A program made the translations under genes and the position numbers. A DNA stretch of 64,000 nt from contig JBAZYB010000001.1 of NCBI GenBank assembly GCA_041659545.1, forward strand, positions 119,510-183,509, read 5' to 3'. This stretch comes from Hyphomicrobium sp. (lineage in GTDB: Bacteria; Pseudomonadota; Alphaproteobacteria; Rhizobiales; Hyphomicrobiaceae). Of this stretch, positions 5,395 through 60,817 are shown one piece after another. The first letter of the stretch is position 1. The number at the start of each line of letters is the position of its first letter. Under the pieces are notes generated by a model. It had not been told where the DNA came from. It made no database searches and worked only from the letters and a program-made list of their open reading frames with translations.

Positions 5395-6680
5395 AGACGC
5401 GCCAACTTCTTGCGTTGCTACTAGGCCTGGGTCTGTGCACCGCTGCGCTGCAGGCCGATTTTCTTGAGGTTCGTCGCTCCGTGACGCTCAAGGGCACGCC
5501 TCAGGGTGATGCTGAGGTCTTGGACAGCCTCTCAAAGGGCGTGAATGTCGAGTTGCTCCAAGACGGACAGCAGAATGGCTACTATCGTGTCCGGGTGCCC
5601 GAAACCGGGCTTGAAGGCTGGGTTTACCGGACCTTTGTCCGCCGGCACACGGGGGGCCTGCCGAGTTCGGCGCCACCATCCCCGCCGTTGGCCGCCGCGG
5701 CAGCGGGCGGAGGTGTCTGGATTCGCTTTGATCCGGAGTTTGTTCAAAAGCACTTTGACGGAGACCTTGCCTTCTCCGAAATCACCTTTGATGGGCAATG
5801 GAGAGCCGGTCCGCTGCACAACATGCCCGCCAACAAGGTGTCTTGTAGCGGAAAGGACGGCGAGGTTCACCTTGGCGCGTACGAGTCCTCAGTCGAGTTG
5901 GACGGCTCCGAACGCCCATTCTCGCGACTCGTCGGTCAGCCGACCGTGGCTTGGGGCTTGGTAGCCGAACCGCCAAATGCTACCCGTGACGACGCGGAGC
6001 TCCTGGAGAGCCTCGAAGGGTCGCGGGTCACGTTTACCGGCTACATGCGGGTCTGGAACGAGGGCCACTACGATGACGAATCGAAGAAGAACCCTGACGG
6101 TTCAAGTAACCCGAACCACGTTGTTGAACTGCATCCTGCCTGGCATCTGGAGTCTACTGATGAGGGATCGGAGGACTACGATTTCCCCCCGACAGCTCCC
6201 ATGCCGCGCTACGCCGGATATGGCCTGAGCAAGGCCGCCAGAATTTTCAGCGCGGTCTCCGCCGGCAACTGGCCTCTCGCCTATAACGCGAATGGTCAAT
6301 TGCACATCTTCTTGTCCGAGGAGTCAAACTTCTACCAGCTACCGGTGCGCATAACTTCAGTACAGCCCCTGGAGGACGGAATCGTCTTGCGCGCAGACGT
6401 TTGCAGTACGGTCGGTTGCGTGGGGAACCAAGTCCTCTATCGGAATCTTCGTCTTGTCACGCGTAGTGATAGCCAGGACGGAAAGCCATTCAAGAAGGGT
6501 GATGTGACTGAGGTGCTCGGCATCTTCAGTGTCCACCTCGGCAAGGCGAGGCAGATCGCCGCTCCGGCGAACGGCCAGTCACAAGCAGTGTCGGTCGCCG
6601 AGGCCCTTGAGTTCTTCGTCTTCACTCGCGCCGCGCAGAAGGCAGTCATGAACAGCAAGTGTGTTCCTGAGGGTTCGTAG
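5391..6680 (+). CDS. Secreted protein with N-terminal bacterial SH3-like domain
   Basis: Signal peptide MKTRQLLALLLGLGLCTAALQA. SH3b-like segment GYYRVRVPETGLEGWVYRTFV. The last 86 codons are duplicated at 60140..60398. Confidence 0.7.
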   Translation: MKTRQLLALLLGLGLCTAALQADFLEVRRSVTLKGTPQGDAEVLDSLSKGVNVELLQDGQQNGYYRVRVPETGLEGWVYRTFVRRHTGGLPSSAPPSPPLAAAAAGGGVWIRFDPEFVQKHFDGDLAFSEITFDGQWRAGPLHNMPANKVSCSGKDGEVHLGAYESSVELDGSERPFSRLVGQPTVAWGLVAEPPNATRDDAELLESLEGSRVTFTGYMRVWNEGHYDDESKKNPDGSSNPNHVVELHPAWHLESTDEGSEDYDFPPTAPMPRYAGYGLSKAARIFSAVSAGNWPLAYNANGQLHIFLSEESNFYQLPVRITSVQPLEDGIVLRADVCSTVGCVGNQVLYRNLRLVTRSDSQDGKPFKKGDVTEVLGIFSVHLGKARQIAAPANGQSQAVSVAEALEFFVFTRAAQKAVMNSKCVPEGS

Positions 6681-6868
6681 CGTGCCCCGATGAGTCCATA
6701 AAGTAAGGCGACCTTGCGGGGTGGGTGGCCATTCGGCCAAGGGTGGGCCGAGGCAGGTTCACCTTCGTCTGCCATGGACCAAACTGTCACCCGCCAAGTG
6801 ACAAGGTCTGGCTGAGAGGCGAGGCCCCAGCCAACGTGCACTCCGTCGGAGTGGAACAGTGGCAGAGG
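6422..6868. repeat. Left copy (first part) of a long direct repeat, matching 60140..60591
   Basis: My manual alignment gives about 92-95 percent identity across the last 259 nt of gene 5391..6680 plus about 190 nt downstream. Confidence 0.9.
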
Positions 6869-6967
6869 CCTCAAGGACGATGTCAATCTCTTAGACCGTT
6901 CGCGACAAAGATCGCGCGGTCCCGCCAGTGATACGATTCGGAGCGATTCGCAATTGAGGGAGCTGCA

Positions 6968-7897
6968 GTGCAAATCAAAGCGTATATCGCTGTCCTGTTT
7001 GCGACGACGTTTACGTCATGCGGTGGGGCCACACCCCTGACAGCTCCTTCAGCTCCAGGTCAGCCTTCCCCAACTGCGAGTGTGCCCACTTCTCCAACTC
7101 CGATCGAACCCCCAAAGTACACATTGCGGGGGTCTGTAGGGGAATACGGCTCGTCTAACTTGAACAACACAACCCCGATTGCAGGGGTAAGCGTCTCCAT
7201 TGTCGACGGGCCGAACGCCGGGACATCGGCAATGAGCGATGCGAGCGGACAGTACTCGATACCTGGTGTTCTTGCCGGCACATTCAACCTTCGAGCCGCT
7301 TTGAACGGCTACCAAACGCAAGAGCGATCAACGACTCTGGCAACCGACATGACTGTCAACTTCGTGATGGTCAGAGACTGTAGTCCGTGGCCATCGGCGC
7401 TTGCGCCGATGATGGCCAGGATGTCGCTGGTCAGTAATCTTTGTCTCGTTAGGTGGCCAAGCAATCAGGCCTCCAACTATGTTGCTTCGCAGCGCGTCGT
7501 GTATTACCGCTCCCCGAGCCCGGTGGGTGGCGAGCTTGCTGCAATAGCCCACGAACTCTGCCACGTACACCAACACCGCGTGATTCTTGATTCAGGAAGG
7601 TCGGATCCGGCACATGACGGTGAGTTTGTGCCGGCGTGGACCGAAACCGCCGAGGGGCGCAGCTTTGTTGAGCTAACAGGCTGGCGGCTGGGTAGCCCGG
7701 GAGGGCAGGCACCCGGTTTTGGATGGGTTGAGGCATGCGAGAGATGGAGCTGTGGCTACGCCAACCCTATTGAAGATAATGCTGAGGCGTGTGCCTACTG
7801 GAGCAACCCTGGCAACGATGCGGGCCGCGGCAAACAGCCACTGCAAGAATTTGCCCCAAGAAGGGCTGAGTGGATGCGGCGTTGGTTGCCATACTGA
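6968..7897 (+). CDS. Lipoprotein with carboxypeptidase-regulatory-like domain and HExxH metallopeptidase motif
   Basis: Lipobox-like LFATTFTSC. GVSVSIVDGPNAGTSAMSDASGQYSIPGVLAGTFNLRAALNGYQTQ resembles CarboxypepD_reg. IAHELCHVHQH contains HExxH. GTG start. Confidence 0.6.
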   Translation: MQIKAYIAVLFATTFTSCGGATPLTAPSAPGQPSPTASVPTSPTPIEPPKYTLRGSVGEYGSSNLNNTTPIAGVSVSIVDGPNAGTSAMSDASGQYSIPGVLAGTFNLRAALNGYQTQERSTTLATDMTVNFVMVRDCSPWPSALAPMMARMSLVSNLCLVRWPSNQASNYVASQRVVYYRSPSPVGGELAAIAHELCHVHQHRVILDSGRSDPAHDGEFVPAWTETAEGRSFVELTGWRLGSPGGQAPGFGWVEACERWSCGYANPIEDNAEACAYWSNPGNDAGRGKQPLQEFAPRRAEWMRRWLPY

Positions 7898-8040
7898 GCG
7901 GCGCGCGCTAACACGTGAGCCTTGACGACGCGATCAAGGAGACTCAGATTAGGACGCCAACTGGTTCAGAATGTCTGGAATCCACAAATGGCCTAGCCGA
8001 TCTCTCTGGCTTGCTTGATTGTCTGAGACGTAGACTTGTT

Positions 8041-9203
8041 ATGTTCCTGACACGCCTCAGTGCCGTCGTGCCGCTCTGTTTACTGTGTTTTGTGGCATGT
8101 AGTGGCAAGGAGTCGCCCAAGACTCCACTGTCACCGTCGCCCTCGGCTACCGTGACTGCAATCACGGTTTCTGGAACGTCCTCGCTTGTAGCTGTGACGC
8201 AAACCACCCAGCTGCGAGCAGTTGCGTCACTTTCGAATGGCACCAGCCAAGACGTCACGACGCAAGCCTCGTGGTTGTCCAGCAATCCCAACGTTGCCAT
8301 GGTCTCGGCAACCGGACTCGTGACCGCCACGGGTTATGGCGGCGCCGACATTCAGGCCACTCACGCAGGCTTCAGTGGAATCATCTCCGTGTCGATCGCA
8401 CCACCAGCGAGCGGCAGCCTCCTTCTGTACGACGTCGCAGCGGATGTCCCCGCAGCCGATCTCGACGCGATTCGCCGAGGAATCGTTCAGGCGCAAGCGT
8501 TCCTGGCGAGCGAGCTGGGAGGAGACATCCCGGTCAACACTCAGCTCGGCATCAACGTGAAGGTGGTCGCGACGGCCTCGGCAATCCGGACCCCGGCGCT
8601 CAAATACCGGGCGGTGGTGGCGCGTGCTGCACGGCACTCGACACCTCCGGGCGGCCCCGACCGTTCTTCGACGTCAGGCATCCACATTTTGCCCAGCCCG
8701 GATGGGGCGGTGAATGGAGCTTGACGGCCCAGAAAGAAAAGACCGCGGCTCACGAATACACGCATGGGTGGCAGTCTGCGTTGGGTGGACTGAGTTTCAC
8801 ATCAAGAGAACGCCTTGTTGCCTGGATGAGCGAAGGGATGGCTGATTACATCGCGTTTTCGATGATGATCCGACGCGGTCAGATCAGGGAGGCCGACAGG
8901 GATACTTTCATGCTTCGGAACGCACTGTCGACAGGGCAGGCGGTTCGATGTTTGGGATCCCTCGAAGGCGTCATCACGTCAATTGGTGTCTGGCCCGGCG
9001 ACGTCGGCCAGATTGCGGTGAAGCGACTGGTTGCCCAAAGCTCCAATGGCATGTTGTCGCTGCGCATCCTGAACCAAGGCTTGGGTGCCGGCATGAATTT
9101 CGACCAAGCCTTCCAGGACGCCTTCGGCGTAACTAAGCAGGCTTTTTACGAGGCCTTCCCCACCTATCTGGCGAGCCTCGGCGGGCCTTCTTCATGTTCC
9201 TGA
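8041..9203 (+). pseudogene. Lipoprotein with Big_2 (bacterial Ig-like) domain and HExxH motif, apparently frameshifted
   Basis: The N-terminal part is in the frame of ORF 7915..8724: [22 protein letters not shown] lipobox, and the Big_2-like pattern [47 protein letters not shown]. The C-terminal part, with TAAHEYTHGWQ (HExxH), is in the frame of ORF 8271..9203. The frame switch lies somewhere near 8560-8700. Confidence 0.55.
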
Positions 9204-9292
9204 CCGTCCGACGAAATCCGGAGATCGGGGCCCTCAACGGCGTTCGAAGTCCGTCTTCCCAGCCACCTTGCCCTCTCAGTCGAACTGGGAAA

Positions 9293-9529
9293 TAGCGGCA
9301 GAGGATGGCAGAAGATGGAAGAAGGCGGAAGAGGATGGAAGCTATTGGCAGATGGGTGCGAAGCAGGGAGACGACCCCGAGCCTCTGCTGATTCCTGCTA
9401 GGCTCTGCCGTTGTCTGCCAAGTACTGCCGTTTCAGCCGGTTAGCCGTTTTGCCGCTCTGCCACGGTCTGCCGCGTACTGCCGTGGTATGCGGCTAGCTC
9501 CAATCAAATGACACTCGAAATGACACTCG
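9293..9529. repeat. 237-bp GGCAGA/TCTGCC phased-repeat element, copy 1 (matches 60581..60817)
   Basis: Left arm is six 10-nt units starting GGMAGA (GGCAGAGGAT GGCAGAAGAT GGAAGAAGGC GGAAGAGGAT GGAAGCTATT GGCAGATGGG). Right arm is rich in the reverse complement (CTCTGCC, GTCTGCC, ACTGCC). The element ends with the tandem AATGACACTCGAAATGACACTCG. Confidence 0.85.
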
Positions 9530-9797
9530 CCGCGAGCCTCTCCGAGATCTTCTCCTCGGAACACTTGCTGGAAAGGCTCCACCAGGTTTTCTGAAACAGT
9601 GCGGCGTCAGTCAGGATCCACCGTGAGCTTCGGACAGACCGAGCATCGACTCGGATGCCACCAGCGGGTCCCATTCTGGTCGCCGCTTGACAACCGCTGC
9701 GGAGACTGTGATCGGCGCCGTGTTCATGGACATCGCGCAAAGTGGTATTTTGCGGTCTGTGAGTAGCCCCGCCCATGAGTCACCCCAAGGTATCGAA

Positions 9798-10141
9798 ATG
9801 CGTCGCAGCGCGGAGGCGCGGGCGCTCAGGCGCGGCGGGAGTTAGGTGATCGCCAGGGGGCGGAGCGACGGTACTCGGACCAGCTCCGCCACGAGGCCGT
9901 CGCGTACTGGCGGGCGCGCGAGCCGACGGGCGACGGGGTGCGCGCGGTGGCGACCGCGCTCGGCGTCGCGCCAGTGAGCCTGCGCCGATGGGCCCAGGAT
10001 CCGCGGTGGCGCCCGGTCCGTGTCATCGCCGACGCGGCGCCCGTGCCCCCGCGCCTCGTGGTAGTCATCGACGCCACGGGCGTCCGCGTCGAGGGCGTGG
10101 ACGTCGAGACGGCTGCGCAACTGGCCGCGCGGTTGCGATGA
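9798..10141 (+). pseudogene. tnpA: IS66 Orf1 (TnpA-like), start lost or frameshifted
   Basis: The frame holding ...ERRYSDQLRHEAVAYWRAREPTGDGVRAVATALGVAPVSLRRWAQD... is open from 9779 but has no ATG/GTG/TTG before GTG 9938. An ATG at 9798 sits in another frame and stops after 15 codons. Confidence 0.5.
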
Positions 10142-10516
10142 GATGGGCCGGCCGGCGCGTCGCCGTCTACGCGCACGGTGCGCCGACGGACATGCGCAAG
10201 GGGTTCGACAGCCTCTGCGTTGATGGTCACCGAACGACTGGCGCGGAATCCCCTGAGCGGCGATGTCTTCCTGTTCGTGAGCCGGAATCGCATCCGCGCG
10301 AAGGTCCTGCACTTCGACGGGACGGGGCTCTGTCTGTATGTGAAGCGCCTGGAGCGCGGGCGCTTCGCGGCCCTGTGGCGTGACGAAGCCGCTGGTCCGA
10401 TGACGCTGACGGTGAGCGAGCTCGATCTCTTTCTCGATGGCAGCTCGCTGGTGGGGCGGATGCCGCTCACGCCGCCCGCCCTCACGCAGTTTTCGCTTGC
10501 CTCGGATCGCGCGTGA
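10138..10516 (+). pseudogene. tnpB: IS66 Orf2 (TnpB), frameshifted
   Basis: MRWAGRRVAVYAHGAPTDMRKGFDSL is in one frame (ATGA overlap with tnpA). The continuation SALMVTERLARNPLSGDVFLFVSRNRIRAKVLHFDGTGLCLYVKRLERGRF is in another. The shift is near 10205-10215. Confidence 0.75.
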
Positions 10517-10535
10517 TGATCTACTGTGCGGCAAC

Positions 10536-12020
10536 GTGGTGCCCTTGGCTGGGGAACGCGACGTCGACACGCTCCGGCAGATCAGTCGGCTCCTCGAGCG
10601 CGAGAATCAGCGACTCATCACCCAGAATCTCCAACTGACGACGGAACTCGCGCGGCTGCGCGGGCTCCCCGAGGTCGCGCAGCTGACGTTCGCCATCGAG
10701 CAGACGCTGCACCAGACACGGGCGGCCATTCTCGGGGGCGCGCCAGCCGCGCCAGCCCCGGCCATCCCGCGGCCCCCGCGGCCGGGACACGGGCCGCGCG
10801 AGCAGCCGGCCTTGCCGGTCATCGAGGTGCGGCACGAGCTGGCGCCTGATCAGCGCGGGTGCCCGGCCTGCGGGGGCACGCTCACCGAGCTGGCCGGCCA
10901 ATACGAAACGGCCGAGCGCATCACCACCGTGAAGGCCACGTATCACGTGCAGCACCATGCGCGGCAGAAGTATCGGTGTGCGTGCAACGGGGCCGTGGTC
11001 ACCGCACCCGCCCCGCCCACCCTGATCCCGGGCGGGCGGTATACCCCGGCCTTCGCGGTCAGCGTGGCCGTCGCGAAGTACACCGATCATTTGCCGCTGG
11101 AGCGTCAGGTGCGGATGATGGCGCGCGAGGGCCTGATCGTCGAGTCGCAGACGTTGTGGGATCAGATTCAGGCCCCTGGCGCGGCATCTCGAGCCCACCT
11201 ACGAGGCCTTGGTCGCCAGGCCTTGGCCGTGCCGGCGATCCATGTCGATGAAACGCGCTGGCCCCGCCTCGGATCGGACGCCCAGTCGGCCGGCACCGTC
11301 TGGGGCCTCGCGACACCGACGATCGCCTTCTATCGCATCTTGCCCGGGAAGTCCGCGGACGAGGGCCGGCAGTTCCTCGGCGGCTATCGCGGCACGGTCG
11401 TCGTGGACGGGTACGCCGTGTACGAGGTGCTGGCGCGGGACGGACCTCACTTTGCACTCGCGCACTGCTGGGCGCACACGAAGCGGAAGTATGACGCGAT
11501 CGCCGAGCACTGGCCGACTGCGTGTGCTGAGATCACCGAGCTGATCGGCGATCTGTACGCCGTCGAACGCCTCGTCCCCGGTCGGTTTCCCGGCGATGCC
11601 GCCGCGCAGGCCCTGCGGCAACAGCTTCGGTAGGCGCGATCGGGGCCGATCCTCGGTCGCATCAAGACCTGGGCGACCGAGCAAGTCGGCCTGCCGCGCA
11701 GCGAGTTTGGCAAGGCGGTGCGTTACATGCTCGAACGGTGGACCGGCCTCACCCGGTTCGTCGACGACCCCTGCATTGCACTCGACAACAATGCCGCGGA
11801 GCGGGCGCTCCGGGGGCCGGTCGTCGGCCGCAAGAATCACTACGGCTCGAAGTCGCTGCGGGGGACGCAGGTCGCCGCGCTCTTCTACACGCTGTGCGAG
11901 ACCGCGAAGCTCACCGGCGTCGATCCGCACGCGTATCTGCTGCACGCCGTCGAGGCCGCCCTCGCGCGGCCCGGCACGGTCACGCTGCCCGACGCGCTCC
12001 TGCTCGCCACCTCGGCGTAG
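10536..12020 (+). pseudogene. tnpC: IS66-family transposase (TnpC) with an in-frame TAG at 11631..11633 and a local double frameshift
   Basis: Zn-finger CPACGG...CACNG, HVDETRW, DGYAVY, CWAHTKRKY, and a C-terminal DNNAAERALRGPVVGRKNHYGSKS. ORFs 10437..11633 and 11718..12020 share one frame and are separated by TAG. Residues 11176-11220 read better in the +1 frame (LARHLEPTYEALVAR). Confidence 0.8.
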
Positions 12021-12080
12021 CGGCCCCTTTCGTTGCCCCCGGCTCAGAACACCACCACGGGCCAGGGCGAGGACTTACTG

Positions 12081-12647
12081 ACTACCGCATTGGAATCCGT
12101 TGGTGTCGCTGTGCCGTTAAGGCTACTAGCGGCATCGCCATTTGTGCTCCGGTTCCCACAGACATACCTAAATGCAGTGGACCCGGGCCGCATGCTATAT
12201 GGCATTACCTCCCGAGGTGAGGGCGGTCACCTCTCTCTTCGGCCCACACTTAGCAAGCTTTCGACAAAGGTGATTGCCGTCCGAGCTGTGACACAACGCG
12301 ACCAATTTGCAGAGGAGGCGCCGTTCCCAATTCGTCCTCAGATGCGACTGGGCGTAATTCCGTTCGGCTCCGCAGATGGAATGGATCGACTCACAGTAGG
12401 TCACGTGCTAGTGCGCGGGCGGCGCGTGCCAGTCATTTCTCGCCCTTCGCTTGAGCACACTCGCATCGATCTGACCGATGTTCCAGACGTTGGCGTTGGT
12501 GAGGAGGTAGTGATTATTGGCAAACAATTGGGTGACGCGATAGATGCGGAGACAATCACCGCGAAAACCGGCATACCTCACAACCAAATCGCGACAGCCA
12601 TCGGTCCGCGTGTCCAGCGAACTTACCTATCAACGCCTATTCTCTAA
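12081..12647 (+). pseudogene. alr: Alanine racemase, 3' fragment only (N-terminal PLP barrel missing)
   Basis: AASPFVLRFPQTYLNAVDPGRMLYGI, RLGVIPFGSADG, VLVRGRRVPVISRPSLEHTRIDLTDVP, GEEVVIIGKQ and IATAIGPRVQRTY follow the conserved order of the alanine racemase C-terminal domain. Homology starts right at the IS66 right end. Confidence 0.7.
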
Positions 12648-12957
12648 TGACGTCCGACGCGCTTCGAGGTTCGAAACAGTCCACGACTTTTCAGCGCGGC
12701 CGGCCGATTGACACTCTAGAACGCGAACGAACATATCCCTCGAGGAGAGTGAGCTGCCGGCCGTTCATCTTTCCGTCATGCCCGTTGGAACATCCTCCCG
12801 AAACCGCTCGTTGAGCGACCCGATTGCGGCGTTGTCTGCCCGCCAAACAAGTTGCGACACACCCATGTAGACAGATAGACGGCCACTAAGTAGAATTCTC
12901 TCACACGCTCGGCTGAACAAACCCTGGCCTCGAAGGCATCCTTGGAATCGGAGCATC

Positions 12958-13191: not shown

Positions 13192-13384
13192 CGAGTGCCA
13201 AGGGGCATTCGCGCTCGGCGCCAAACGCCCGCTCTTAAATTCAAGCTTCCGCTACCCCCACAAAACACGGTCCGTTGGGATCCTGAGCACGATCTGCCGT
13301 ACTTCCTCCGCTGCAGGGTTTCTTTGCATCTGGAGGCGCGGAAATCGTTGCGGAATGGTATTGTCGCGTTTCCTTAAGACATAA

Positions 13385-17313: not shown

Positions 17314-17318
17314 CAGCT

Positions 17319-18398: not shown

Positions 18399-19240
18399 CA
18401 GTCCCGGTGCGCCGTTTGCGAAGGATGCCTCGCGCTGCCAGCGCGCACTTCGTCGCCGATGCGCTCGCAACGAGGGTCGTCACCGCACACAGTGGGTACC
18501 ATCTCGATATCGAGGGTGGTCTGCAAGCGAGTCAATACGGCATGGTGTTTGTTGCAGCGCGACTAGCCCTATATGCCGCGCTGTACGTTCATCTGGCGAG
18601 ACAGGGGAAAGTGGCGATGCTGCCCGCGGACATGCGAGAGATAGGCAGCCAAGTGTTCGACCTATTAGCCGCGGACCCAGCAGAAGCGGACGTGCTAGCA
18701 ACGGCAATGGAGTTCGAGCGCGCGAATCCGTCAACCCCTGACGAGGTGCGCCAGTTCGTCGAAGCGTATCGCGCGTTCTTTGCGAACGTCCTGCAGCTCG
18801 ATCGCGGATTTGCGCATGCCACACTGTTCTCGGACAACACCTACGATCAGTACTTGAACTATGCCTCCGAGCTGACCAAGGCATTCGAATTGATTGGTAT
18901 TGCCGGCATCAATATTCCGGACATCCGCGCGCGCGCAGCGAAGCGGACCGCTGTGGCGGGTCGCCTCTCCGTAGGAGAGCCGAATGTGCCTTCCCTCTCG
19001 ATAGCTAAACCGATTGAGGAAACAGCGCCAGATGTCCGACAGGTCGTCGTGTCGCTTGACGAACGCGATGTCGAGCCACTGCGTGCGGCGCTGCGTGCGC
19101 TAACCGAGGCAATCACGGCCGAGCTTGCATCGACCGACGGCCGCGATGAGCGGCGCGAACTACTAGTTCGCCAAGGTGGGTTCGAGCGGACGCTGGAGCG
19201 GTTGGCTGAACAGGCACGGCCGACTTTATCAAAGCCATGA
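18395..19240 (+). CDS. Hypothetical helical protein coupled to the NTase gene
   Basis: ATGA overlap with both neighbours. 281 aa, Ala/Leu-rich. No motif recognised. Confidence 0.55.
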   Translation: MTVPVRRLRRMPRAASAHFVADALATRVVTAHSGYHLDIEGGLQASQYGMVFVAARLALYAALYVHLARQGKVAMLPADMREIGSQVFDLLAADPAEADVLATAMEFERANPSTPDEVRQFVEAYRAFFANVLQLDRGFAHATLFSDNTYDQYLNYASELTKAFELIGIAGINIPDIRARAAKRTAVAGRLSVGEPNVPSLSIAKPIEETAPDVRQVVVSLDERDVEPLRAALRALTEAITAELASTDGRDERRELLVRQGGFERTLERLAEQARPTLSKP

Positions 19241-27750: not shown

Positions 27751-29237
27751 GTCCCCCCCGCCTCTCGGTGATGGATCTCCCGATCGACGCACCGGGCTCG
27801 TCGTTCCTTGACATGGCAGAAGCCTGCTCTGGGGAGCCGGAGTTTGTGTTCCTGGATGCGCAGGGAGACCACCCAGGGTGGGGAATGTCGATGTTCGCTT
27901 TCGCGCCAGTGGCCACCATCGTGGCGCGCAGCGATGAGACCACGGTCCGGAAGTGCGGGGTGGAGCGGCGGTCATCGCTGCCTGTTCTGGAGAGCATCGA
28001 AGAAGAATTGCGTCCTTACCGTCTGGACCTGCCAGATGGTCAAGCGCATCCCCACTTCGTCGGCGGCGCCGTCGGATACCTGGCATACGAACTCGGCCGC
28101 CAGTTGGAGGTGCTGCCATCCTCCGCGGTAAATGATCTCAGGTTGCCCACAGCCTATTTCAATATCTACAATTTTGCCGTTTGCTACGACCATCAGAGTG
28201 GTCGCTGCCGTTTGGCCTATGTTGACGGCTTTCCCTCTGACGCGCCCACGCGAGAAGCAATTCTGCGGCGCCTTGAATCGGCGTCGGCGACCCCGCGGGT
28301 TGCGGCAGCAGATTGGCGTGGACGGTTCGGAGCCATCACTTCCGACCTATCGAAGGCGGAGTATCTCGACGCGCTGAGTCGAATCAAGGAGTACATACGA
28401 AGCGGAGACGTGTACCAGGTGAACATGACCCAGCGTTTCCGGGCTCCACTGGGGATGTCTCCCTGGTCTCTCTGGAGGCGACTGGCTGCCATCAACCCCG
28501 CGCCCTTCGCGGCATATCTCAACCTGGATGAGCATTCAGTGATTTCGTCATCACCGGAGCTATTTCTCCGCGTTCGCGGCGACCGTGTGGAAACCAGGCC
28601 CATCAAGGGGACGATCCGTCGCAGCGCAGATTCCGTTGAAGACGCCATGTTCGCGCGTGAGCTGCTAGGCAGCGCGAAGAACAATGCCGAACTGGCGATG
28701 ATCGTCGATCTGATGAGGAATGATCTCGGCCGCGTGGCAATGCCGGGTACGGTCGAGGTCGAGGCTTGCCCAGTCCTGGAAACATACCCGTCGGTGCATC
28801 ACCTGGTCGCCACGGTGGCCGGCCGCCGCGATCCGTCCCTGTCGTTGTCAACGCTATTGCGCGCGACATTTCCGGGCGGCTCGATCACCGGTGCGCCGAA
28901 GATCCGCGCGATGGAGATCATCGACGAGCTTGAGCCCGTAGCACGCGGTGTATACACGGGCAGCATCGGGTATATCAGCTGCCACGGCACGATGGACCTC
29001 AACATCGCGATCCGGACGGTCATTGTGAAAGGGGACACGGCCTACTTTCACGCCGGCGGAGGCGTTGTCGCCGACTCCGAACCGGAACAGGAATATGAGG
29101 AACTGCTGCTCAAGGCGAGCCGTCTCGCGCAGGCCCTCACAGCCGACGGCCCGGTCGGGACGGAGAGCCCCTCCGGTCGTCTGCGCAGTGCCAGCGAAAG
29201 CCGAAACCCTTCCGCCATAACACAGAGGAGTAAGTGA
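27747..29237 (+). CDS. Chorismate-utilising enzyme component I (aminodeoxychorismate synthase PabB-like, or anthranilate/ADIC synthase)
   Basis: GDVYQVNMTQRF, SSSPELFLRV, FPGGSITGAPKIRAMEIIDELE and RGVYTGSIGY. ATGA overlap with the amidotransferase gene. Confidence 0.85.
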   Translation: MSPPRLSVMDLPIDAPGSSFLDMAEACSGEPEFVFLDAQGDHPGWGMSMFAFAPVATIVARSDETTVRKCGVERRSSLPVLESIEEELRPYRLDLPDGQAHPHFVGGAVGYLAYELGRQLEVLPSSAVNDLRLPTAYFNIYNFAVCYDHQSGRCRLAYVDGFPSDAPTREAILRRLESASATPRVAAADWRGRFGAITSDLSKAEYLDALSRIKEYIRSGDVYQVNMTQRFRAPLGMSPWSLWRRLAAINPAPFAAYLNLDEHSVISSSPELFLRVRGDRVETRPIKGTIRRSADSVEDAMFARELLGSAKNNAELAMIVDLMRNDLGRVAMPGTVEVEACPVLETYPSVHHLVATVAGRRDPSLSLSTLLRATFPGGSITGAPKIRAMEIIDELEPVARGVYTGSIGYISCHGTMDLNIAIRTVIVKGDTAYFHAGGGVVADSEPEQEYEELLLKASRLAQALTADGPVGTESPSGRLRSASESRNPSAITQRSK

Positions 29238-53902: not shown

Positions 53903-54046
53903 AGTCGAGTCGCGCAACACCGCCGGCTCGTGAGTGCAGCCGGCCATTGAAGTGTATAGCGTCAACCCTACGACAGTCGACCTGACAGGAAGTACGTCAT
54001 TCTATGTCGTTCGTGACCGCACCTGGCCAGCTGTGACTCTCGCTTA

Positions 54047-55012
54047 ATGATGCTATCGGCGTCTGTGTCTGCAATCAGGGTCTCACACATCGCGAAGAGG
54101 TTCGGGAAGCGGGATGCCCTGCGCGACATCACGTTTGATGTGGCGCCAGGCGAAGTGTTCGGACTCGTGGGTCCGAATGGGGCCGGGAAGTCTACGTTGA
54201 TCCGGATTCTGTCGACGCTGGTGCGGCCCTGCGCCGGCACGGCATTCGTCGGCCCGCATAGCGTCACTGATGCCCCGAACGCCGTAAGACGACTGCTTGG
54301 CGTAGTGCCGCAGGCGCATACCAGCGATCCTCACATGAGCGTCGAGGAAAACCTTCGTCTGTTCGCAAAGCTGTACGAGGTTCCGGCCGCGAAGCGACGG
54401 CAACGGATTCCGGAGGCGATGGAGGCGGTCGGCGTTCTAGAACATCGCTCAACTCCAGTGAAGAATCTATCGGGCGGGCTGAGAAGGCGGGTCGAGATTG
54501 CAAGGGCCTTGGTGCATGAACCAGCCGTGTTGATCCTGGACGAACCAACCTCCAGTCTTGACCCGGTGTCGAGGACCAACATCTGGTCCGTTATTAAGAC
54601 CCTTGTTAGGGATCGAGGCATGGCGTTAGTTCTGGCAACTCACTATATGGAAGAAGCCGAGAGCCTGTGCGATCGAGTTGCAATCCTCAATACTGGGCGA
54701 ATCGTTGCGCTCGACTCGCCGGGGCGGATGAAACAGGCGTTGAGGAAAAACGATGTGATCGACCTCGTGTTTGAGGAGCCGGGTCAACAACGAGATTGGG
54801 CGGCGGCACTGTCAACATTGCCCGGACTCGTGAGCATAGCCCAGGCGCCGAGCGGCGTTACGATTGAGAGCACGAATGGCTTCCGGACGCTGCAGGCTCT
54901 GTCCTGCCACGTCGAGGATCAACAGGCTCGAATCGCGTCATGCTCAATGCGTCCTATCACTCTGAATGATGTATTTGCCCACTATACGTCGAACCTCGGA
55001 GCGAAAGCCTGA
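54047..55012 (+). CDS. ABC transporter ATP-binding protein (ABC-2/DrrA-like)
   Basis: GPNGAGKST, LSGGLRRRVEIA and VLILDEPTSSLD. Confidence 0.9.
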   Translation: MMLSASVSAIRVSHIAKRFGKRDALRDITFDVAPGEVFGLVGPNGAGKSTLIRILSTLVRPCAGTAFVGPHSVTDAPNAVRRLLGVVPQAHTSDPHMSVEENLRLFAKLYEVPAAKRRQRIPEAMEAVGVLEHRSTPVKNLSGGLRRRVEIARALVHEPAVLILDEPTSSLDPVSRTNIWSVIKTLVRDRGMALVLATHYMEEAESLCDRVAILNTGRIVALDSPGRMKQALRKNDVIDLVFEEPGQQRDWAAALSTLPGLVSIAQAPSGVTIESTNGFRTLQALSCHVEDQQARIASCSMRPITLNDVFAHYTSNLGAKA

Positions 55013-55036
55013 TCGGAGAGCGCTTCTAACGCAGTA

Positions 55037-56122
55037 ATGTGGAAGACCCTTGCGATTGTCGAGCGGGAACTGTGGCGCCTTGCCCGTCGTCCCACACTGA
55101 TCGTCATGGCTCTCCTTCTGCCAGCAATCCAGTTGCTGGTTCTTGGTTACGCGGTTGGCGGTGATATCCCTGAGTTGCGGGTTGCGGTGGTTGGCGATGA
55201 TCCAGTCATACAACTTCTCGTGCCCGATTCGGCCGAGGGCAGATCCGACGCTGAGGCGCTTCGGGGGATCCGATTTCAGTCGATAGATGCAGCACGGCAA
55301 GCCCTCTTGGCCGGTGAGGTGCATGGGGTCCTGGCGATACCGCGCGATCTTCGGGCCGAAGCGGTCAGAATCGAAGTCGATAGCGCGGACAAGTTTCTCG
55401 CAGACGCGATGGTCGACCGTGTCACGTCTGCCCTGCGCCGCTACGATCTCGCGATCGCTCCCGAGTTGCTGGCACAGACGACAAACCTGAATGTGACGGA
55501 GGTGTTCGGTCAAGTTCCGTATATCCAGTACTTGCTCGCAGGGGTTGTGTCTTTAGCGGTTTTCATGATGTCGACGGTAGGGGGCGGCATTACTTTCGTG
55601 GACGACAAGGTCAGGGGCGTCCACGAGGGGTATCTCGTAACTCCAATCACGACCGTCCAGTTAGTCGGCGGCTTTGGCATCGCGGGTGTGATCAAAGCGG
55701 CGTTAGCCGGTATCTGTCTCTTGGTCATCGGCAGCGTGCTGGCTGATCTGCCCAGCATAATGGCGCTCGGCCAGTTCCTGAGACTGAGCATCGTTGTCGC
55801 GGCGACGGCTTGTGCTCTGGTCGGATTGACGTTCGTGATGATCGTGCGCGCGCAAGACCTGTTCTGGCCGAGGGCTATGTTTGCCGTGGCGAACACCGCG
55901 CTGTACTTTCCTAGCGGAGCGCTCTATCCAACCGACGCGTTCCCAGAATGGATGCGGGTGCTGTCGTATGTAAACCCCTTCTACTATTCGGTGCACGCTT
56001 TGCGCGCTGTCATGCTCAGGAGCGCAAACCTGTGGCAAGTACAGGCCGACCTGGGGGCGTTGCTCCTATTCGCTGCCGTGGCCTTCGCCATTGTCGTCTT
56101 CGCGTTTAAGCGCACCCTATGA
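55037..56122 (+). CDS. ABC-2 type transporter permease
   Basis: 361 aa. One N-terminal TM, an extracytoplasmic loop, then about 5 C-terminal TM helices. It directly follows the ATPase gene. Confidence 0.8.
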   Translation: MWKTLAIVERELWRLARRPTLIVMALLLPAIQLLVLGYAVGGDIPELRVAVVGDDPVIQLLVPDSAEGRSDAEALRGIRFQSIDAARQALLAGEVHGVLAIPRDLRAEAVRIEVDSADKFLADAMVDRVTSALRRYDLAIAPELLAQTTNLNVTEVFGQVPYIQYLLAGVVSLAVFMMSTVGGGITFVDDKVRGVHEGYLVTPITTVQLVGGFGIAGVIKAALAGICLLVIGSVLADLPSIMALGQFLRLSIVVAATACALVGLTFVMIVRAQDLFWPRAMFAVANTALYFPSGALYPTDAFPEWMRVLSYVNPFYYSVHALRAVMLRSANLWQVQADLGALLLFAAVAFAIVVFAFKRTL

Positions 56123-56152
56123 CCACTTCGTGAGCTGTGGTCCCTTGACCTC

Positions 56153-57004
56153 ATGCCGATCATGAACCCTGAGGAATTTGCGCTCGCAAGTCGGCGCGCC
56201 CATCAAGCGGACTCAGTGGTCGATGTATATGGGGTAACGGTGGGTGGGCTGAGACCCGTGGTGTGCGCCGGCCCCTGCTCTGTGGAGACACCGGAGCAGA
56301 TATTGGCATGTGCTGAAGCAGTCCGGAAATCCGGGGCACATCTGCTTCGAGCCGGAGCGTACAAACCGCGCACGTCACCCTATTCCTTCCAGGGCCTCGG
56401 CGAGAGAGGTCTCAAGCTTCTCGCCGAGGTGCGGGAGGAAACGGGCCTCGGGATCGTGACCGAGGCGGTTGATACCGACACATTCGACCTCGTCGAGGAA
56501 TATGCTGACTGCGTGCAAATCGGCGCACGAAACATGCAGAATTTCTCGCTCCTGCGCCGTGCAGGTAGATCGGTTCGCCCAATTCTTCTAAAGCGCGGGC
56601 TCTGCGCAACATTGCAAGAGTTCTTGTTAGCCGCCGAGTATGTCTTGGCTGGCGGCAATCCGCGGGTGATCCTCTGTGAACGCGGCGTGCGAACATTCGC
56701 GGATCATTCGCGTACGACACTCGACCTCAGCATCGTGCCGGCCGTGAAGAGGCTGAGTCACCTTCCAATCATCGTGGATCCGAGTCACGCTACCGGCGTT
56801 CGGGACGCGGTGCCTTCGATGTCCCTAGCGGCGATAGCTGCGGGCGCGCATGGTTTGTTGATAGAGATGCATGTGCAGCCGAATCAGGCGCTCACTGACG
56901 GCCCGCAGGCGATTTATCCGTCGCAGCTGGAACGAATCGTATCTGATACCGCTTCGATTGCAGCCATTCTTGCCCAATCCAAAGTGCCCCAACCGCTTAT
57001 TTAA
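56153..57004 (+). CDS. 3-deoxy-7-phosphoheptulonate (DAHP) synthase, type I-beta (KDO8PS-like) family
   Basis: CAGPCSVE, LRAGAYKPRTSPYSFQGLG, VQIGARNMQN, LLKRG and VDPSHATG. Confidence 0.8.
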   Translation: MPIMNPEEFALASRRAHQADSVVDVYGVTVGGLRPVVCAGPCSVETPEQILACAEAVRKSGAHLLRAGAYKPRTSPYSFQGLGERGLKLLAEVREETGLGIVTEAVDTDTFDLVEEYADCVQIGARNMQNFSLLRRAGRSVRPILLKRGLCATLQEFLLAAEYVLAGGNPRVILCERGVRTFADHSRTTLDLSIVPAVKRLSHLPIIVDPSHATGVRDAVPSMSLAAIAAGAHGLLIEMHVQPNQALTDGPQAIYPSQLERIVSDTASIAAILAQSKVPQPLI

Positions 57005-57151
57005 CTGGCTGGTGTTCGGCAGGACAACAGCTGCGAGTCAGTATGTCCAGTGCACGTTCTGCCGTACTTACTGACAGCGCGAGCGTCCAGGCTACGGGAG
57101 GGTATAGTGTCGCATCGCTTAAGCGCGTGAGTTCTTCAACCGGAGGGTGTG

Positions 57152-57361
57152 ATGTCCAAGGTTAGCAAAGAGTTGGTCGTTGGGGTATCGCGGAAGACAG
57201 GAGTCAGCGAAGCTGACGTTGAGAAAGTGCTGAATTCGCTTGGACTGAACAAGGTGCTGTCCAATGTTCAGGCGTCTGCCGGAGCAACGAAGATGTCCTC
57301 TTTGAAGGTTGGAGACCTCAAGCTGGGAGTGCGGTTGGGCCGGTCTTCGGTGTCGGTCTAG
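57152..57361 (+). CDS. Small protein (69 aa), function unknown; the only short ORF that fits in the cluster's intergenic space
   Basis: GGAGGG sits 4 nt upstream of ATG 57152. The translation is MSKVSKELVVGVSRKTGVSEADVEKVLNSLGLNKVLSNVQASAGATKMSSLKVGDLKLGVRLGRSSVSV. It ends 28 nt before the next gene. Confidence 0.5.
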   Translation: MSKVSKELVVGVSRKTGVSEADVEKVLNSLGLNKVLSNVQASAGATKMSSLKVGDLKLGVRLGRSSVSV

Positions 57362-57389
57362 GCAGGTGCACTCGTGAGAGTGCGTCTGC

Positions 57390-58670
57390 GTGAAGCAATG
57401 TGGCTTGTCCGAGTATCCAGTGACTGAGAGCGATCTGGCGATTCCCGTAGACATCACTCCCGCGATCGAGTGTTTGCCGCTACGGGAAGCGCTGTTGTCT
57501 TACAGCGAGGCTCGCACAATTCAATCCGACCCGGTGCGGTTGAGCGATTTGATTGCAACGCTCAACGAGCGGGCCCTTTACGACGTACCTGCCCTGTCCT
57601 CTTTCGCGGCAACACCGAGAACAACGAAGGAAGGCCTGCGTGATCATCAGGCGCTCTGGCTAAACAGGCTGGCTCTTGCGGATGAACTGTGGCTCAAGTA
57701 CACGACGGGTACCACGGGACCTCCTTTGCCCATTCCACAGACTGGCCTATTTCAGTTTGACCAGCTGTTTCTGGCGCCTTTGCGCGCTGCGAGACACCGC
57801 GCTCCGCACCTGAAGCCCAGCGCCACTATTCTGGCTCTCACCGACAATCCGGACTGCGAGACCGTGATTTGGCCCAACCCGTGGGGTGGGATGGTGTGCC
57901 AGTACTATTTTAGTGACGAACTAGCAGCCGCAACCGACCTGTCCCGCACGTTAGCGGAACTGGAGCCGGATCTAATAACGGCTAAACCGAGTCTCACTCA
58001 AAGGCTGGCGACCCTGTCCTTAACCGGCGAGCTGTCTGTGCCCTGTCCTATCTTGGTCAGCGGCGCCGACATCTCCGCTGTCGCAAAAACGTCTTACGAG
58101 CAGGCGCTGGGTGTCCACGTAATCGAAGCGTTCGGACTGACGGAGACCGGACTCATCGCGTCAGATTGCAGCTGCGGAGGCGGCTTGGCCATAGACAGGG
58201 ATGTCGCAATCGAGGTCTTGGACGGGGATGAGCGACCGGTCGCCATAGGCGAGTTTGGCGGTCTGATCTTGACGTCACTACGAAACAGCGTCTTGCCGAT
58301 AGTCAGGTATGCCACCGGTGACACAGTGTCCATTGGCGAAGCGTCGCCTCAGTGCAACCGGGGGCAGCACATCGTGGCGATTGGAGGCCGATTATTGCGG
58401 CCGTTCCGTGGGCGCGATGGACGACTGTTGCCGGCGGCCAGATTCCATTCGCTGTTTGCGAACTTCGAGATTACTGAGTTCCAAATGGTTCAAACGCATA
58501 TCGGTCAATTGGACGTTGTAGTGCAGGGGCGGGACGGCGTTACGCTCGATGCGCGGGCGATTGAGGGCTGGATCGTCGCCCGGTCTTCGTGTGATGTCAG
58601 AGCTCGAGTGCGGCTCGATACGGTAGATACATCCGGAAAATTTCAACGGTACGTGAGCATGATCGATTAA
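57390..58670 (+). CDS. Phenylacetate-CoA ligase / coenzyme F390 synthetase-like adenylate-forming enzyme
   Basis: LKYTTGTTGPPLPIP (P-loop of the PaaK-like subgroup), EAFGLTETG, RYATGD, and a C-terminal SGKFQRYV. The start codon is uncertain. Confidence 0.65.
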   Translation: MKQCGLSEYPVTESDLAIPVDITPAIECLPLREALLSYSEARTIQSDPVRLSDLIATLNERALYDVPALSSFAATPRTTKEGLRDHQALWLNRLALADELWLKYTTGTTGPPLPIPQTGLFQFDQLFLAPLRAARHRAPHLKPSATILALTDNPDCETVIWPNPWGGMVCQYYFSDELAAATDLSRTLAELEPDLITAKPSLTQRLATLSLTGELSVPCPILVSGADISAVAKTSYEQALGVHVIEAFGLTETGLIASDCSCGGGLAIDRDVAIEVLDGDERPVAIGEFGGLILTSLRNSVLPIVRYATGDTVSIGEASPQCNRGQHIVAIGGRLLRPFRGRDGRLLPAARFHSLFANFEITEFQMVQTHIGQLDVVVQGRDGVTLDARAIEGWIVARSSCDVRARVRLDTVDTSGKFQRYVSMID

Positions 58671-58775
58671 CAGAAGAACGGGTCACTGCCACGATGAAGC
58701 CGCGGCTGCCGTCCGCGGCTTCGCTGCGTACGGGCAAGCCCTTCAGCCCCGTTCACGAGTCGAGATCGCTGAGCG

Positions 58776-58973
58776 TCAGTTTGGACATTGTTCCGCTCTC
58801 AACGCCGCGAGGGTGCGGATCACGCCCGCGATCAACCCTAGGCACTGCGTGCAGGACGCAATGTGCTCCTCCAGCTTCGTTCGGTCCCGCCTTCCGAGCC
58901 CGCGATCGACGTACGCTGCCAGAGCCTCACAATCCGGACAGTCTTTTGCAGCCGTGGTATCGAGGCACAACAC
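58776..58973 (-). CDS. zf-HC2 anti-sigma-factor N-terminal domain protein (short or truncated, no sigma partner seen)
   Basis: CPDCEALAAYVDRGLGRRDRTKLEEHIASCTQC carries the HxxxCxxC signature. It is only 65 aa with no clear TM segment. Confidence 0.55.
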   Translation of the reverse strand: MLCLDTTAAKDCPDCEALAAYVDRGLGRRDRTKLEEHIASCTQCLGLIAGVIRTLAALRAEQCPN

Positions 58974-58985
58974 GGTGGCAGTTGC

Positions 58986-59253
58986 CTAGAGCGCTTTCAG
59001 GTCTGCAAGCGTCACGCCGAACGCAACGCCAGCATTTAAGTAAGCAACGTTGAGCACCGCACAGAGGTGATCCACGGCCACTTCAATCTCGTCGCGGGCG
59101 GATGGCGGCTCGACTTGCGTCAGCGCGGCATCCAGGGCCGTCCTGACAGCGCCCAGGTCCAAATACTTGATGGCGACGCCATCGATCTCGTTGAACAGTT
59201 GATCGTCGGACAGTGGCAGGGCGCTGCGAACAGGAATCCGAATTCTTGCGAGC
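58986..59253 (-). other. Possible 3' fragment of a gene whose 5' end was replaced by the IS21 left end
   Basis: The minus-strand ORF 58986..59462 runs into the IS21 terminal repeats. Only ...LARIRIPVRSALPLSDDQLFNEIDG...VTLADLKAL lies outside the IS. No family recognised. Confidence 0.25.
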
Positions 59254-59268
59254 TGTCCCAGTTTGCGT

Positions 59269-59424
59269 ATTCCGGTCCATCGTGAACACTCATTCCGTTT
59301 CAACGTGAACCCCGATTCCGCTGATGCTGAACAGCGATTCCGGCCATCGTGAACACCCATTCCGGTCATGGTGAACACGGATTCCGGTGATCGTGAACGG
59401 CGAATCCGGGTGATCTGAACACTC
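59269..59424. repeat. Seven tandem 21-23 bp repeats, consensus ATTCCGGTNATCGTGAACAC
   Basis: Units start at 59269, 59292, 59315, 59337, 59359, 59381 and 59404, directly upstream of istA. Confidence 0.85.
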
Positions 59425-59477
59425 ATCGGGCGTTGTGCGCGATCCTGAGGGGTTTCCCGCAAGGAGGGACCCCCTGG

Positions 59478-60139
59478 ATGGCAGCCCCACGGCTACTGAT
59501 GAGACGACTCCGCGAATTACTCCGTCTGAAATACGAGGCCGGCCTGACCCACCGGGCGATTGCCCAGGCGTGTGCCGTGGGCCTGGCACGGTGTCGGCGT
59601 ATCTGGCCCGCGCGACCGCCGGCGGGCGTGACGTGGCCGCTGCCCGCCGATCTGGACGACGCGGCCCTGGAGGCGCGGCTGTTTGCGCGCCCGGCCGACC
59701 CGGCCCGTCTCGACCGCACCGTCCCGGCGTGGCCGCACCTGCACCAAGAACTCAAACGGCCCGGGGTCACCCTGCAGCTGCTGTGGACGGAGTATCGCGG
59801 CGCGCACCCGACGGGCTACGCCTACGGCCAGTTTTGCGAGCGCCATCGCCGCTGGGCGCGAGTGCTCAAGCCGTCGATGCGCCAGGTGCATCGCGCCGAC
59901 GAGAAACTCTTTGTCGATTTCTCTGGCAAGCGGCCGGCGCTGGTCGACGCGACGACGGGCGAACTCGTCCTCGTCGAGCTCTTCGTCGGTGTGCTCGGGG
60001 CGAGCGGTCTGATCTATGCGGAGGCCACGCGGAGCCAGGACTTGGCGTCGTGGGTGGGCGCGCACGTGCGCATGGTCGAGTACTACGGCGGGAGTCCCGC
60101 GATCTGGGTGCCGGATAATTTGAAGAGCGGCGTGATGTC
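59478..60139 (+). pseudogene. istA: IS21-family transposase IstA, 3'-truncated and locally frameshifted
   Basis: MAAPRLLMRRLRELLRLKYEAGLTHRAIAQA..., WPLPADLDDAALEARLF, LLWTEYRGAHPTGYAYGQFCERHRRW and KLFVDFSGKRPALVD. The HTH segment GTVSAYLARATAGG is readable only in another frame (about 59575-59632). The DDE region is cut after VPDNLKSGV. Confidence 0.75.
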
Positions 60140-60398
60140 GGGGAACCAAGTCCTCTATCGGAATCTTCGTCTTGTGACGCGCAGTGACAGCCAGGACGGC
60201 AAGCCATTCAAACAGGGCGATGTGACTGAGGTGCTCGGCATTTTCAGCGTCCACCTCGGCAAGGCGTGGCAGATCGCTGCTCCGGCGAACGGCCAGTCAC
60301 AAGCAGTATCGGTCGCCGAGGCCCTTGAGTTCTTCGTCTTCACTCGCGCCGCGCAGAAGGCAGTCATGAACAGCAAATGTGTTCCTGAGGGTTCGTAG
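60140..60398 (+). pseudogene. Duplicate of the last 86 codons of gene 5391..6680, fused in frame to truncated istA
   Basis: GNQVLYRNLRLVTRSDSQDGKPFKQGDVTEVLGIFSVHLGKAWQIAAP...NSKCVPEGS differs from the left copy at 2 residues. Confidence 0.85.
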
Positions 60399-60580
60399 TG
60401 TGCCCCGATGAGTCCATCAAGTCAGGCGACCTTGCGGGGCTGGGTGACCATTCGGCCAAGGGATGGGCCGAGGCAGGTCCCTCTTCGTCTGCCATGGACC
60501 AGACTGTCGCCCGCTAAGTGACAAGGTTCTGGCTGAGAGGCGAGGCCACTCAGCCAACGTGCACTCCGTCGGAGTGGAAC

Positions 60581-60817
60581 TAGCGGCAGAGGATGGCAGA
60601 AGACGGAAGAAGGTGGCAGAGGATGGAAGCTATTGGCAGATGGGTGCGAAGCAGGGAGACGAGGTTCGGGCTCTTCCGATTTCTGCCGTGCTCTGCCGCC
60701 TTCTGCCAAGCACTGCTGTTTCTGCTAGTTAGCGGCGCGGCTGCTCTTCTGCGTACTGCCATGCTCTGCCGCCTGATGCCGGCAAATATTCTTGAATGAC
60801 ACTCGAAATGTCACTCG
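60581..60817. repeat. 237-bp GGCAGA/TCTGCC phased-repeat element, copy 2
   Basis: GGCAGAGGAT GGCAGAAGAC GGAAGAAGGT GGCAGAGGAT GGAAGCTATT GGCAGATGGG, then a centre, then TCTTCC/TCTGCC units at 10-nt spacing. It ends AATGACACTCGAAATGTCACTCG. Confidence 0.85.

Follow-up and report, generated by a model that had tools for sequence, protein, structure and literature searches.

How a large biosynthetic gene cluster came to lie between two diverged copies of the end of a single gene is the question raised by a 64,000-nt stretch of the Hyphomicrobium sp. contig JBAZYB010000001.1 (positions 119,510–183,509; hereafter the window, in whose numbering all coordinates are given). A block of 53.7 kb is bracketed here by direct repeats at 6422–6868 and 60140–60591; the left repeat contains the 3′ end of an intact gene, denoted X, and the right repeat contains a relic of a second allele of X. 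The block is an ordinary genome mosaic, an accessory block with diverged homologous repeats in a variable locus, and not a new kind of mobile element. The history that we favor, and to which we give about an even chance, is a homology-anchored insertion of DNA from a related lineage, with erosion linked to insertion sequences (ISs) before or after entry. It explains, in concrete terms that can be checked, how a large and unusual cluster with four B12-radical-SAM enzymes could have reached a variable, defense-type locus of an uncultured genome that the present comparisons show to be acidobacterium-like.

The diverged repeats and gene X

Three repeat pairs were located with a repeat finder, namely 6422–6721/60140–60439 (95% identity), 6741–6807/60461–60527 (90%) and 9288–9483/60576–60771 (80%), and the matches are not due to chance. 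Gapped alignment of 6422–6868 with 60140–60591 gives 93.2% identity, with 422 matches, 25 mismatches and six gap positions, and the longest perfect runs are 68, 36, 30 and 29 nt; the limits given for this repeat in an earlier note, made by a model from the letters alone, are correct to the base. The left repeat (+ strand) consists of the last 86 codons of X, ∼130 nt of conserved 3′ DNA and the first ∼60 nt of a short junction element, termed here the GGCAGA element, with homology ending after GGCAGAGG. The right repeat (+ strand) consists of an 86-codon relic of a second X allele with its 3′ DNA. What the note had read as a continuation of the repeat at 60581–60817 and 9293–9529 is a separate element, the GGCAGA element itself, which also occurs in unrelated contexts without gene X.

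The coding part of the repeat (6422–6680 against 60140–60398; 259 nt in the frame of the open reading frame, ORF, at 5391–6680) contains exactly 13 substitutions. Eleven of these fall at codon position 3 and every one of the 11 is synonymous; the other two are nonsynonymous, AAG→CAG (K→Q) and AGG→TGG (R→W), which is the count that the note had reached by manual alignment. Under a binomial model, 11 or more of the 13 changes would fall at third positions with a probability of 2e-4. A formal alignment with calculation of synonymous (dS) and nonsynonymous (dN) divergence, proposed in the note as a check, was carried out by the Nei–Gojobori method and gave S = 59.7 and N = 195.3 sites, dS = 0.212, dN = 0.010 and dN/dS = 0.049, with a Fisher p of 3e-6. 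Purifying selection on both copies, as deduced earlier from the pattern of changes, is thus borne out, and a dN/dS of 0.05 shows that the right copy, like the left, was evolving as a functional gene until it was truncated.

The DNA 3′ of X is probably constrained too, because it differs less than the synonymous sites do: in the ∼190 nt following the stop codon 12 of 186 aligned sites differ between left and right, with small indels in addition. A segment of ∼130 nt directly downstream of X (6681–6812, 60399–60530 and, in the related locus L001 described below, 11288–11417) shows ∼6.5% substitutions compared with 18% at synonymous sites and contains the dyad TGTCAC-N7-GTGACA. It may be an unrecognized regulatory or RNA feature; a simple scan of the DNA 3′ of X for a terminator or promoter gave nothing convincing.

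Of X, the right copy keeps no more than the final 86 codons, and these are joined in frame to a truncated IstA of the IS21 family; the note had already described a 3′ fragment fused to a truncated istA. The fusion ORF (59433–60398, + strand) begins with the N-terminal part of IstA, which ends ...VPDNLKSGVM at 60139; residues 30–236 match profile positions 1–192 of 294 (E = 6e-37). The IS21–X junction is spanned by an independent Logan unitig (L146). Because IstA stops at profile position 192 of 294 and a typical IS21 left end lies upstream, 60139/60140 is a deletion junction that joins the interior of the IS to the interior of a once longer X, and not the end of an element. The right copy was once a full X, of which ∼80% (the 5′ end) was lost in a deletion joining codon ∼344 to the middle of istA.

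Intact X (5391–6680, + strand) encodes a protein of 429 residues, the N-terminus of which resembles a signal peptide and precedes a weak SH3b-type domain. The name SH3b that the note had given it is weakly supported: residues 30–85 match TIGR04211 (SH3) with E = 1.2e-5, but X has no Pfam match at E ≤ 0.01. Its N-terminus shares 54% identity over 87 residues with that of an EndoG-like protein. Two more distant homologs of X (P0007 and P0003) are found in different contexts without the junction element, and exact-protein look-ups of X (429 residues), P0034 and P0051 returned no entries.

The related locus and a proposed history of insertion

The closest X homolog (P0001, an ortholog with 96% amino-acid identity) is found on a 110-kb contig from the Joint Genome Institute (JGI), L001, and on the Logan contig L002, both of which carry a single copy of X and lack the block. 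Window positions 4090–6868 are 93.4% identical in nucleotide sequence to L001 8695–11476. The order in L001 is X, its downstream DNA, half of a junction element, variable genes and a ThiF/E1 module, with ∼8 kb of different genes before the module. In the window genome the right copy is followed on its 3′ side by a complete GGCAGA element, by genes for proteins of 218, 305 and 824 residues and then by a four-gene ThiF/E1 module; the two modules have the same order and strand and are 46–74% identical in amino-acid sequence. Judged by this synteny, the relic, and not the intact gene, appears to occupy the position that X has in L001, and the 53.7 kb appear to be extra relative to the arrangement in L001, the only related locus found. 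In the search of relatives for an empty site that the note had suggested, L001 and L002 lack the block, but the genes directly 3′ of the element differ between L001 and the window, and L001, with flanks 72–77% identical, is not a close relative genome-wide. A further empty-site search through a right-flank gene gave closest homologs of at most 54% identity, in an unrelated defense-type neighborhood.

Unique sites in a three-way alignment number 11 in the left copy, 13 in the right copy and 17 in the L001 ortholog, with dS values of 0.21 (left–right), 0.19 (left–L001) and 0.28 (right–L001). The three are approximately equidistant; the two copies in the window differ as much as alleles of separate lineages do and are read here as two lineage-level alleles. 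A recent local duplication is excluded, as the note had already held, the divergence between left and right copies (dS of 0.21) being as large as that between genomes (0.19 and 0.28); a segmental duplication would be expected to give near-identical copies with changes spread evenly over codon positions, whereas 11 of 13 changes lie at third positions and dS is 0.21.

A much older duplication deserves separate consideration. Were the copies resident paralogs from an ancient tandem duplication of X, both kept, with the cluster and the ISs inserted later so as to destroy the second copy, then the purifying selection on both copies and the uniform composition across the region would follow, and the right copy is slightly the most distant (dS to L001 of 0.28 compared with 0.19 for the left copy), as expected if the duplication had preceded the separation of the left copy from L001. 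These differences in distance, however, rest on 10–14 synonymous changes and are not significant, and X is single copy in L001 and L002. Moreover, the X module is 93–97.5% identical between the window and L001, whereas the integrase and ThiF modules are only 72–77% identical and the tyrosine recombinase gene only 77%; because the X module is far more similar between the genomes than its neighbors are, the comparison suggests exchange of the module between lineages and not long vertical residence. We consider resident paralogs unlikely.

In the history that we favor, DNA of a related lineage would have carried its own version of the X locus beside the cluster. Homologous recombination would have brought it into this hypervariable locus, with X, its downstream DNA and the junction element serving as the anchor. 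Campbell-type single crossover and homology-facilitated illegitimate recombination are known modes of homology-anchored entry. By a first route, a single crossover of a circular intermediate carrying an X fragment, each copy would then be part resident and part donor. By a second, one homologous arm combined with an illegitimate join at 6868/6869, the relic would arrive with the donor DNA, as the note had proposed. Either route would leave the resident and incoming copies as diverged direct repeats, and the two fit equally well; IS insertion and deletion would have eroded the edges before or after entry. The arrangement that we observe is the expected one, an insert flanked by direct repeats of one gene, which is whole on one side and cut short on the other. 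The narrower claim that the right copy was brought in with foreign DNA is not supported: nothing shows which copy came in, it is the relic and not the intact gene that adjoins the L001-like context, and the divergence of intact X from L001 does not change at 6422 (dS of 0.17 before and 0.19 after).

Several observations speak against an insertion of this kind. The GC content is flat at 0.58–0.61 across the window, except in two IS fragments, and the tetranucleotide profile of the cluster correlates with those of both flanks at r = 0.87–0.91, compared with 0.85 for flank against flank. The comparison of composition inside and outside the block that the note had put forward as a check thus shows no difference, only the IS fragments standing out, and composition gives no sign of a foreign origin of the cluster. 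No mosaic or crossover signal is visible in the ∼40 variable sites of the three-way alignment. No closely related empty-site or donor genome was found, L001 being the only informative relative and not a close one. Finally, the k = 31 unitigs available for this DNA break inside both repeats, and the linkage of repeats to flanks comes from the original assembly alone. Acquisition from a compositionally similar, related donor fits both the composition and the comparison with a second version of the cluster (L150, described below).

The breaks in the unitigs also bear on whether the arrangement might be an assembly artifact, in which a chromosome carrying X, its downstream DNA, the element and the 218-residue gene was joined through the ∼450-bp repeat to a separate 53.7-kb molecule or strain variant, the join being threaded through identical stretches of the repeat. 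The unitigs of SRR18595301 stop 30 nt into the repeats (L148 ends at 6451 and L146 at 60169, and L149 starts at 6629 and L147 at 60639), variants are left unphased across the 36-nt and 68-nt identical runs, and a segment bracketed by direct repeats has the classic look of a circle inserted into an assembly path. Against this, the copies differ at 25 positions with a further six gap positions and share no identical run longer than 68 nt, so that reads of 100–150 nt would be expected to phase them, and all four outer junctions are reproduced in the independent unitigs at 99.96–100% identity. These unitigs are 100% identical to the window and reach beyond it, apart from one indel in the 2,732 nt of L149, which also spans the break at 6868/6869. 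In addition, the block carries no recognized genes for replication, partition, conjugation or integration, several of its ORFs matching no family, and would have no means of maintenance as a free molecule. An artifact seems to us very doubtful.

Signatures of a self-mobile island were looked for as well, and their absence from the edges of the block favors entry by homology. When the main ORFs from 6869 to 60139 were scanned with Pfam and NCBIfam models, no integrase or recombinase was found, nor were genes for replication, partition or conjugation recognized, although several of the scanned ORFs match no family. The window contains no tRNA or tmRNA. The only tyrosine recombinase gene nearby (426–1412) lies outside the block, next to an invertible segment, and is interrupted by an in-frame stop. 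There is no IS pair of the kind that bounds a composite transposon, the left fragment being of the IS66 family and the right of the IS21 family, both truncated. The limits of the repeats are not of the attachment-site (att) type, since one is the IS21 deletion junction (60139/60140) and the other a break inside the junction element (6868/6869). Of the horizontally acquired island described in the note, what stands is that the block is extra relative to L001; its uniform composition and the lack of a bounding recombinase, tRNA or IS pair count against that description.

The insertion may be reversible. The repeats, with 93% identity and perfect runs of up to 68 bp, could undergo RecA-type recombination that removes the block and restores one intact, hybrid X in an L001-like arrangement, in agreement with the note, and the block may thus be unstable, its loss being possible through the 447-nt repeats. 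Island calling based on composition would miss the block, which is revealed only by the diverged repeat and by synteny.

The GGCAGA junction element

The family to which the junction element belongs is the part of the locus most worth further work. The right copy (60530–60817, + strand) has 10-nt GGMAGARGAT repeats (the A-part), then a core (TGGGTGCGAAGCAGGGAG), a B-part that contains a phased CTGCC array and, at the end, two 12-mers; the middle copy (9253–9529, + strand) is 80–84% identical to it. The same range is obtained for 60576–60817 against 9288–9529, and the mean column identity is 84% for 9250–9580 against 60538–60870. A near-identical 23-mer, AATGACACTCGAAATG[A/T]CACTCG, closes both copies, at 9507–9529 and 60795–60817. 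Of the element, the left repeat has no more than the first ∼60 nt, broken off at 6868 within the A-array.

Full A-core-B copies are found twice in the window and also on the contig L084. L001 has half copies, an A-part with core 3′ of X (11417–11521) and a core with B-part 8.6 kb upstream (2844–3033); both break at the conserved core, and L135 likewise begins at the core. A 17-mer scan of metagenome contigs gave mostly chance matches, those in L024, L084 and L085 alone being real; on these unrelated short contigs the element occurs without gene X. A scan with the terminal motif, covering one genome per species, found 48 places, most of them in metagenome-assembled genomes of Acidobacteriota and Vicinamibacteria, and ∼30 copies align over 183–192 nt, from TGGCTGGGAGGCAGGGAGTCT to AATGACACTCGAAATGACACTCG. 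The family is marked by a conserved core (TGGCTGGGAGGCAGGGAG), by short repeats arrayed in 10-nt phase and by a terminal 12-mer pair (AATGACACTCGA/AATGACACTCG), with most copies having a TTTCG array in place of the CTGCC array of the window copies. Seven contig regions have two or more copies (eight fetched loci, L101 and L144 lying on one contig), and in each of them the copies form a cluster with a single orientation; loci of the family include L101, L102, L111, L112, L120, L122, L127, L132 and L144.

The genes neighboring the element are unrelated to one another and include no conserved family, PIN domains and helicases leading the list. In the 8-kb contexts of 30 copies, which contain 132 ORFs, the 25 most frequent Pfam families include no transposase or integrase (Phage_integrase among them), a list that does not extend to further families matched by a single ORF. 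No Rfam family reaches its gathering threshold in the window, where the element gives only subthreshold matches at chance level, and no consensus fold was obtained on either strand from 21–26 aligned copies; the folds of single copies disagree (z = −3.75 for one and −0.02 for the other). A literature search found no paper containing the motifs of the element.

These arrays raise the possibility that the insertion was site specific, by accretion or cassette exchange at junction elements with [core-B ... A-core] as the moving unit. The 51-kb stretch from 9.4 to 60.7 kb would then be one unit, with the B-part first and the X relic, its downstream DNA and the A-part last, as in the 8.7-kb unit of L001, and the X repeats would be the tails of related units in tandem. 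In keeping with this, the half copies of L001 lie 8.6 kb apart, enclose DNA that ends in X and break exactly at the core; full copies occur twice in the window and again in L084; copies in the seven Acidobacteriota regions are clustered and co-oriented and separate unrelated genes; and the arrays phased at 10 nt stand in inverted orientation, much like protein-binding sites of the arm type. The 51-kb unit, however, has no recombinase, the only tyrosine recombinase nearby adjoins the invertible segment and carries an in-frame stop, and the 1.3 kb upstream of the left module contain no core-B copy. In the left copy the break falls within the A-array and not at the core, and neither integrases nor transposases are among the 25 most frequent neighbor families of the 30 copies. 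On balance such an insertion appears unlikely.

A broader proposal is that the element represents an undescribed family of ∼185-nt DNA elements in Acidobacteriota that act as recombination sites of an integron-like or accretion system, which shuffles gene blocks at one hypervariable locus per genome and placed the 51-kb block. We regard this as improbable. If it were true, the block so placed would run from core-B at 9.4 kb to A-core at 60.7 kb, and the gene-end repeats would be a by-product of tandem related blocks. The arrays themselves, which are of wider interest than the block, may be the mark of a recombination system that has yet to be described for Acidobacteriota.

Block contents, flanking features and comparison with known systems

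The block consists, in order, of a 2.4-kb two-gene block, a junction element, an IS66 fragment, an alr fragment, the 44-kb cluster, an anti-sigma fragment and an IS21 fragment. The IS66 and IS21 remnants, the truncated alr and the whole cluster listed in the note were all found, and the profile positions of the two IS remnants show that both are truncated. The two-gene block (6869–9252, + strand) encodes a CarboxypepD_reg protein (6968–7897) and a Big_2 protein (8041–9203) and lies between a truncated and a complete junction element; it is bracketed by an imperfect direct repeat of ∼45 nt (6826–6868 and 9253–9302) that forms the start of the element. The truncated IS66-family transposase gene (10437–11633, + strand) covers profile positions 3–277 of 387 and lies in a stretch with a GC content of 0.70. 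It is followed by a fragment of an alanine racemase gene, alr (12033–12647, + strand), that encodes only the C-terminal domain.

The biosynthetic cluster (14914–58670, + strand) comprises 44 kb of co-directional genes. They encode a MacB-type permease, ADC/anthranilate-synthase-like proteins, four B12-radical-SAM enzymes, several methyltransferases, two adenylating enzymes with a free-standing carrier protein, PhyH and TauD oxygenases, an HMGL-like enzyme, an ABC exporter, a DAHP synthase and a PaaK-like ligase. The four B12-binding radical-SAM enzymes, at 29234, 38942, 48227 and 50473, are paralogous. A version of the last genes of the cluster with 71–79% identity is held by L150, where the similarity stops right after the PaaK-like gene; this comparison therefore places the right edge of the cluster near 58.6 kb (∼58.5–58.7 kb) and reveals the cluster in contexts other than this one. 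Only two related clusters were seen, that of L150 (68% amino-acid identity for the last gene) and one represented by a Pseudomonas protein (44%).

Between the cluster and the IS21 fragment lies an N-terminal fragment of a zf-HC2-type anti-sigma factor gene (58776–58973, − strand). The IS21-family fragment (59262–60139, + strand; GC content of 0.66) has a left end with seven tandem 22-nt repeats (ATTCCGGTGATCGTGAACACCG) at 59269–59422 and the truncated istA. Seven terminal repeats are, we presume, above the usual number of transposase-binding repeats in the IS21 family.

The right-flank genes (60871–62496, + strand) encode proteins of 218 and 305 residues with no family match; a homolog of the 305-residue protein elsewhere sits in a defense-type gene neighborhood. 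The ThiF module, at 5381–7417 of L147 (∼4.7–6.8 kb past the right end of the window) and at 19097–21182 of L001, encodes proteins of 77, 146, 188 and 273 residues, of which the last is ThiF/E1-like and matches the PADLOC E1–E2 models. The four-gene module can be likened to ubiquitin-like conjugation defense modules, and its surroundings look like a defense-type variable region. X and its neighbors were also considered as known defense genes and rejected as such, having no PADLOC match; only the ThiF gene matches the E1–E2 models.

On the other side, a 2.7-kb segment adjoining the X module (window 1408–4107, L001 6015–8711) is 97.5% identical in the two genomes but inverted, the inversion lying at 17-nt inverted repeats. 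The 17-mer ATAACTGCGAATTATCA occurs at 1409–1425 and as its reverse complement at 4090–4106, inside a longer dyad TGATAA-N7-TTATCA, and one of the two inverted repeats overlaps the stop codon of the adjacent tyrosine recombinase gene. A flip of the segment swaps the genes that face the X operon, away from the recombinase, between those for 466 and 203 residues and those for 102 and 114 residues. By its sequence the segment looks like a recombinase-driven invertible switch. The recombinase gene (426–1412) has an in-frame stop here that splits it into ORFs 426–737 and 831–1412, while its L001 ortholog of 327 residues is intact; because of this stop the switch may be locked in the present genome.

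Among known systems, the junction element resembles repetitive extragenic palindromic (REP), enterobacterial repetitive intergenic consensus (ERIC) and miniature inverted-repeat transposable element (MITE) repeats in being short, noncoding, multicopy and intergenic. It differs from them in that its copies are clustered in one locus per genome and co-oriented and lack terminal inverted repeats or an evident target duplication. The arrays of junction elements are also like integrons and clusters of attC sites lacking integron-integrases (CALINs), in that co-oriented, clustered elements of ∼185 nt separate unrelated small gene blocks, many of toxin–antitoxin type. However, no IntI was found with them, and they have neither R′′/R′ GTTRRRY boxes nor a conserved hairpin or consensus fold; compared with attC sites, the junction element is longer and is conserved in sequence across genomes.

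The block itself recalls att-flanked islands and prophages, in which direct repeats of a gene 3′ end flank the insert, one completing the intact gene and the other being displaced to the far end, and excision restores a single gene. Unlike these, the block contains no integrase and has no tRNA or tmRNA target, the repeat instead including the 3′ end of a protein gene; its repeats are long (447 and 452 nt), are 7% diverged and have no defined core, and one limit lies inside IS21. Compared with Campbell-type insertion, the homologous stretch here is short and diverged. The block would share with Campbell-type and illegitimate insertions the homology to a resident gene at the incoming edge, the directly oriented copies of which one is truncated, the illegitimate nature of the other joins and the reversibility.

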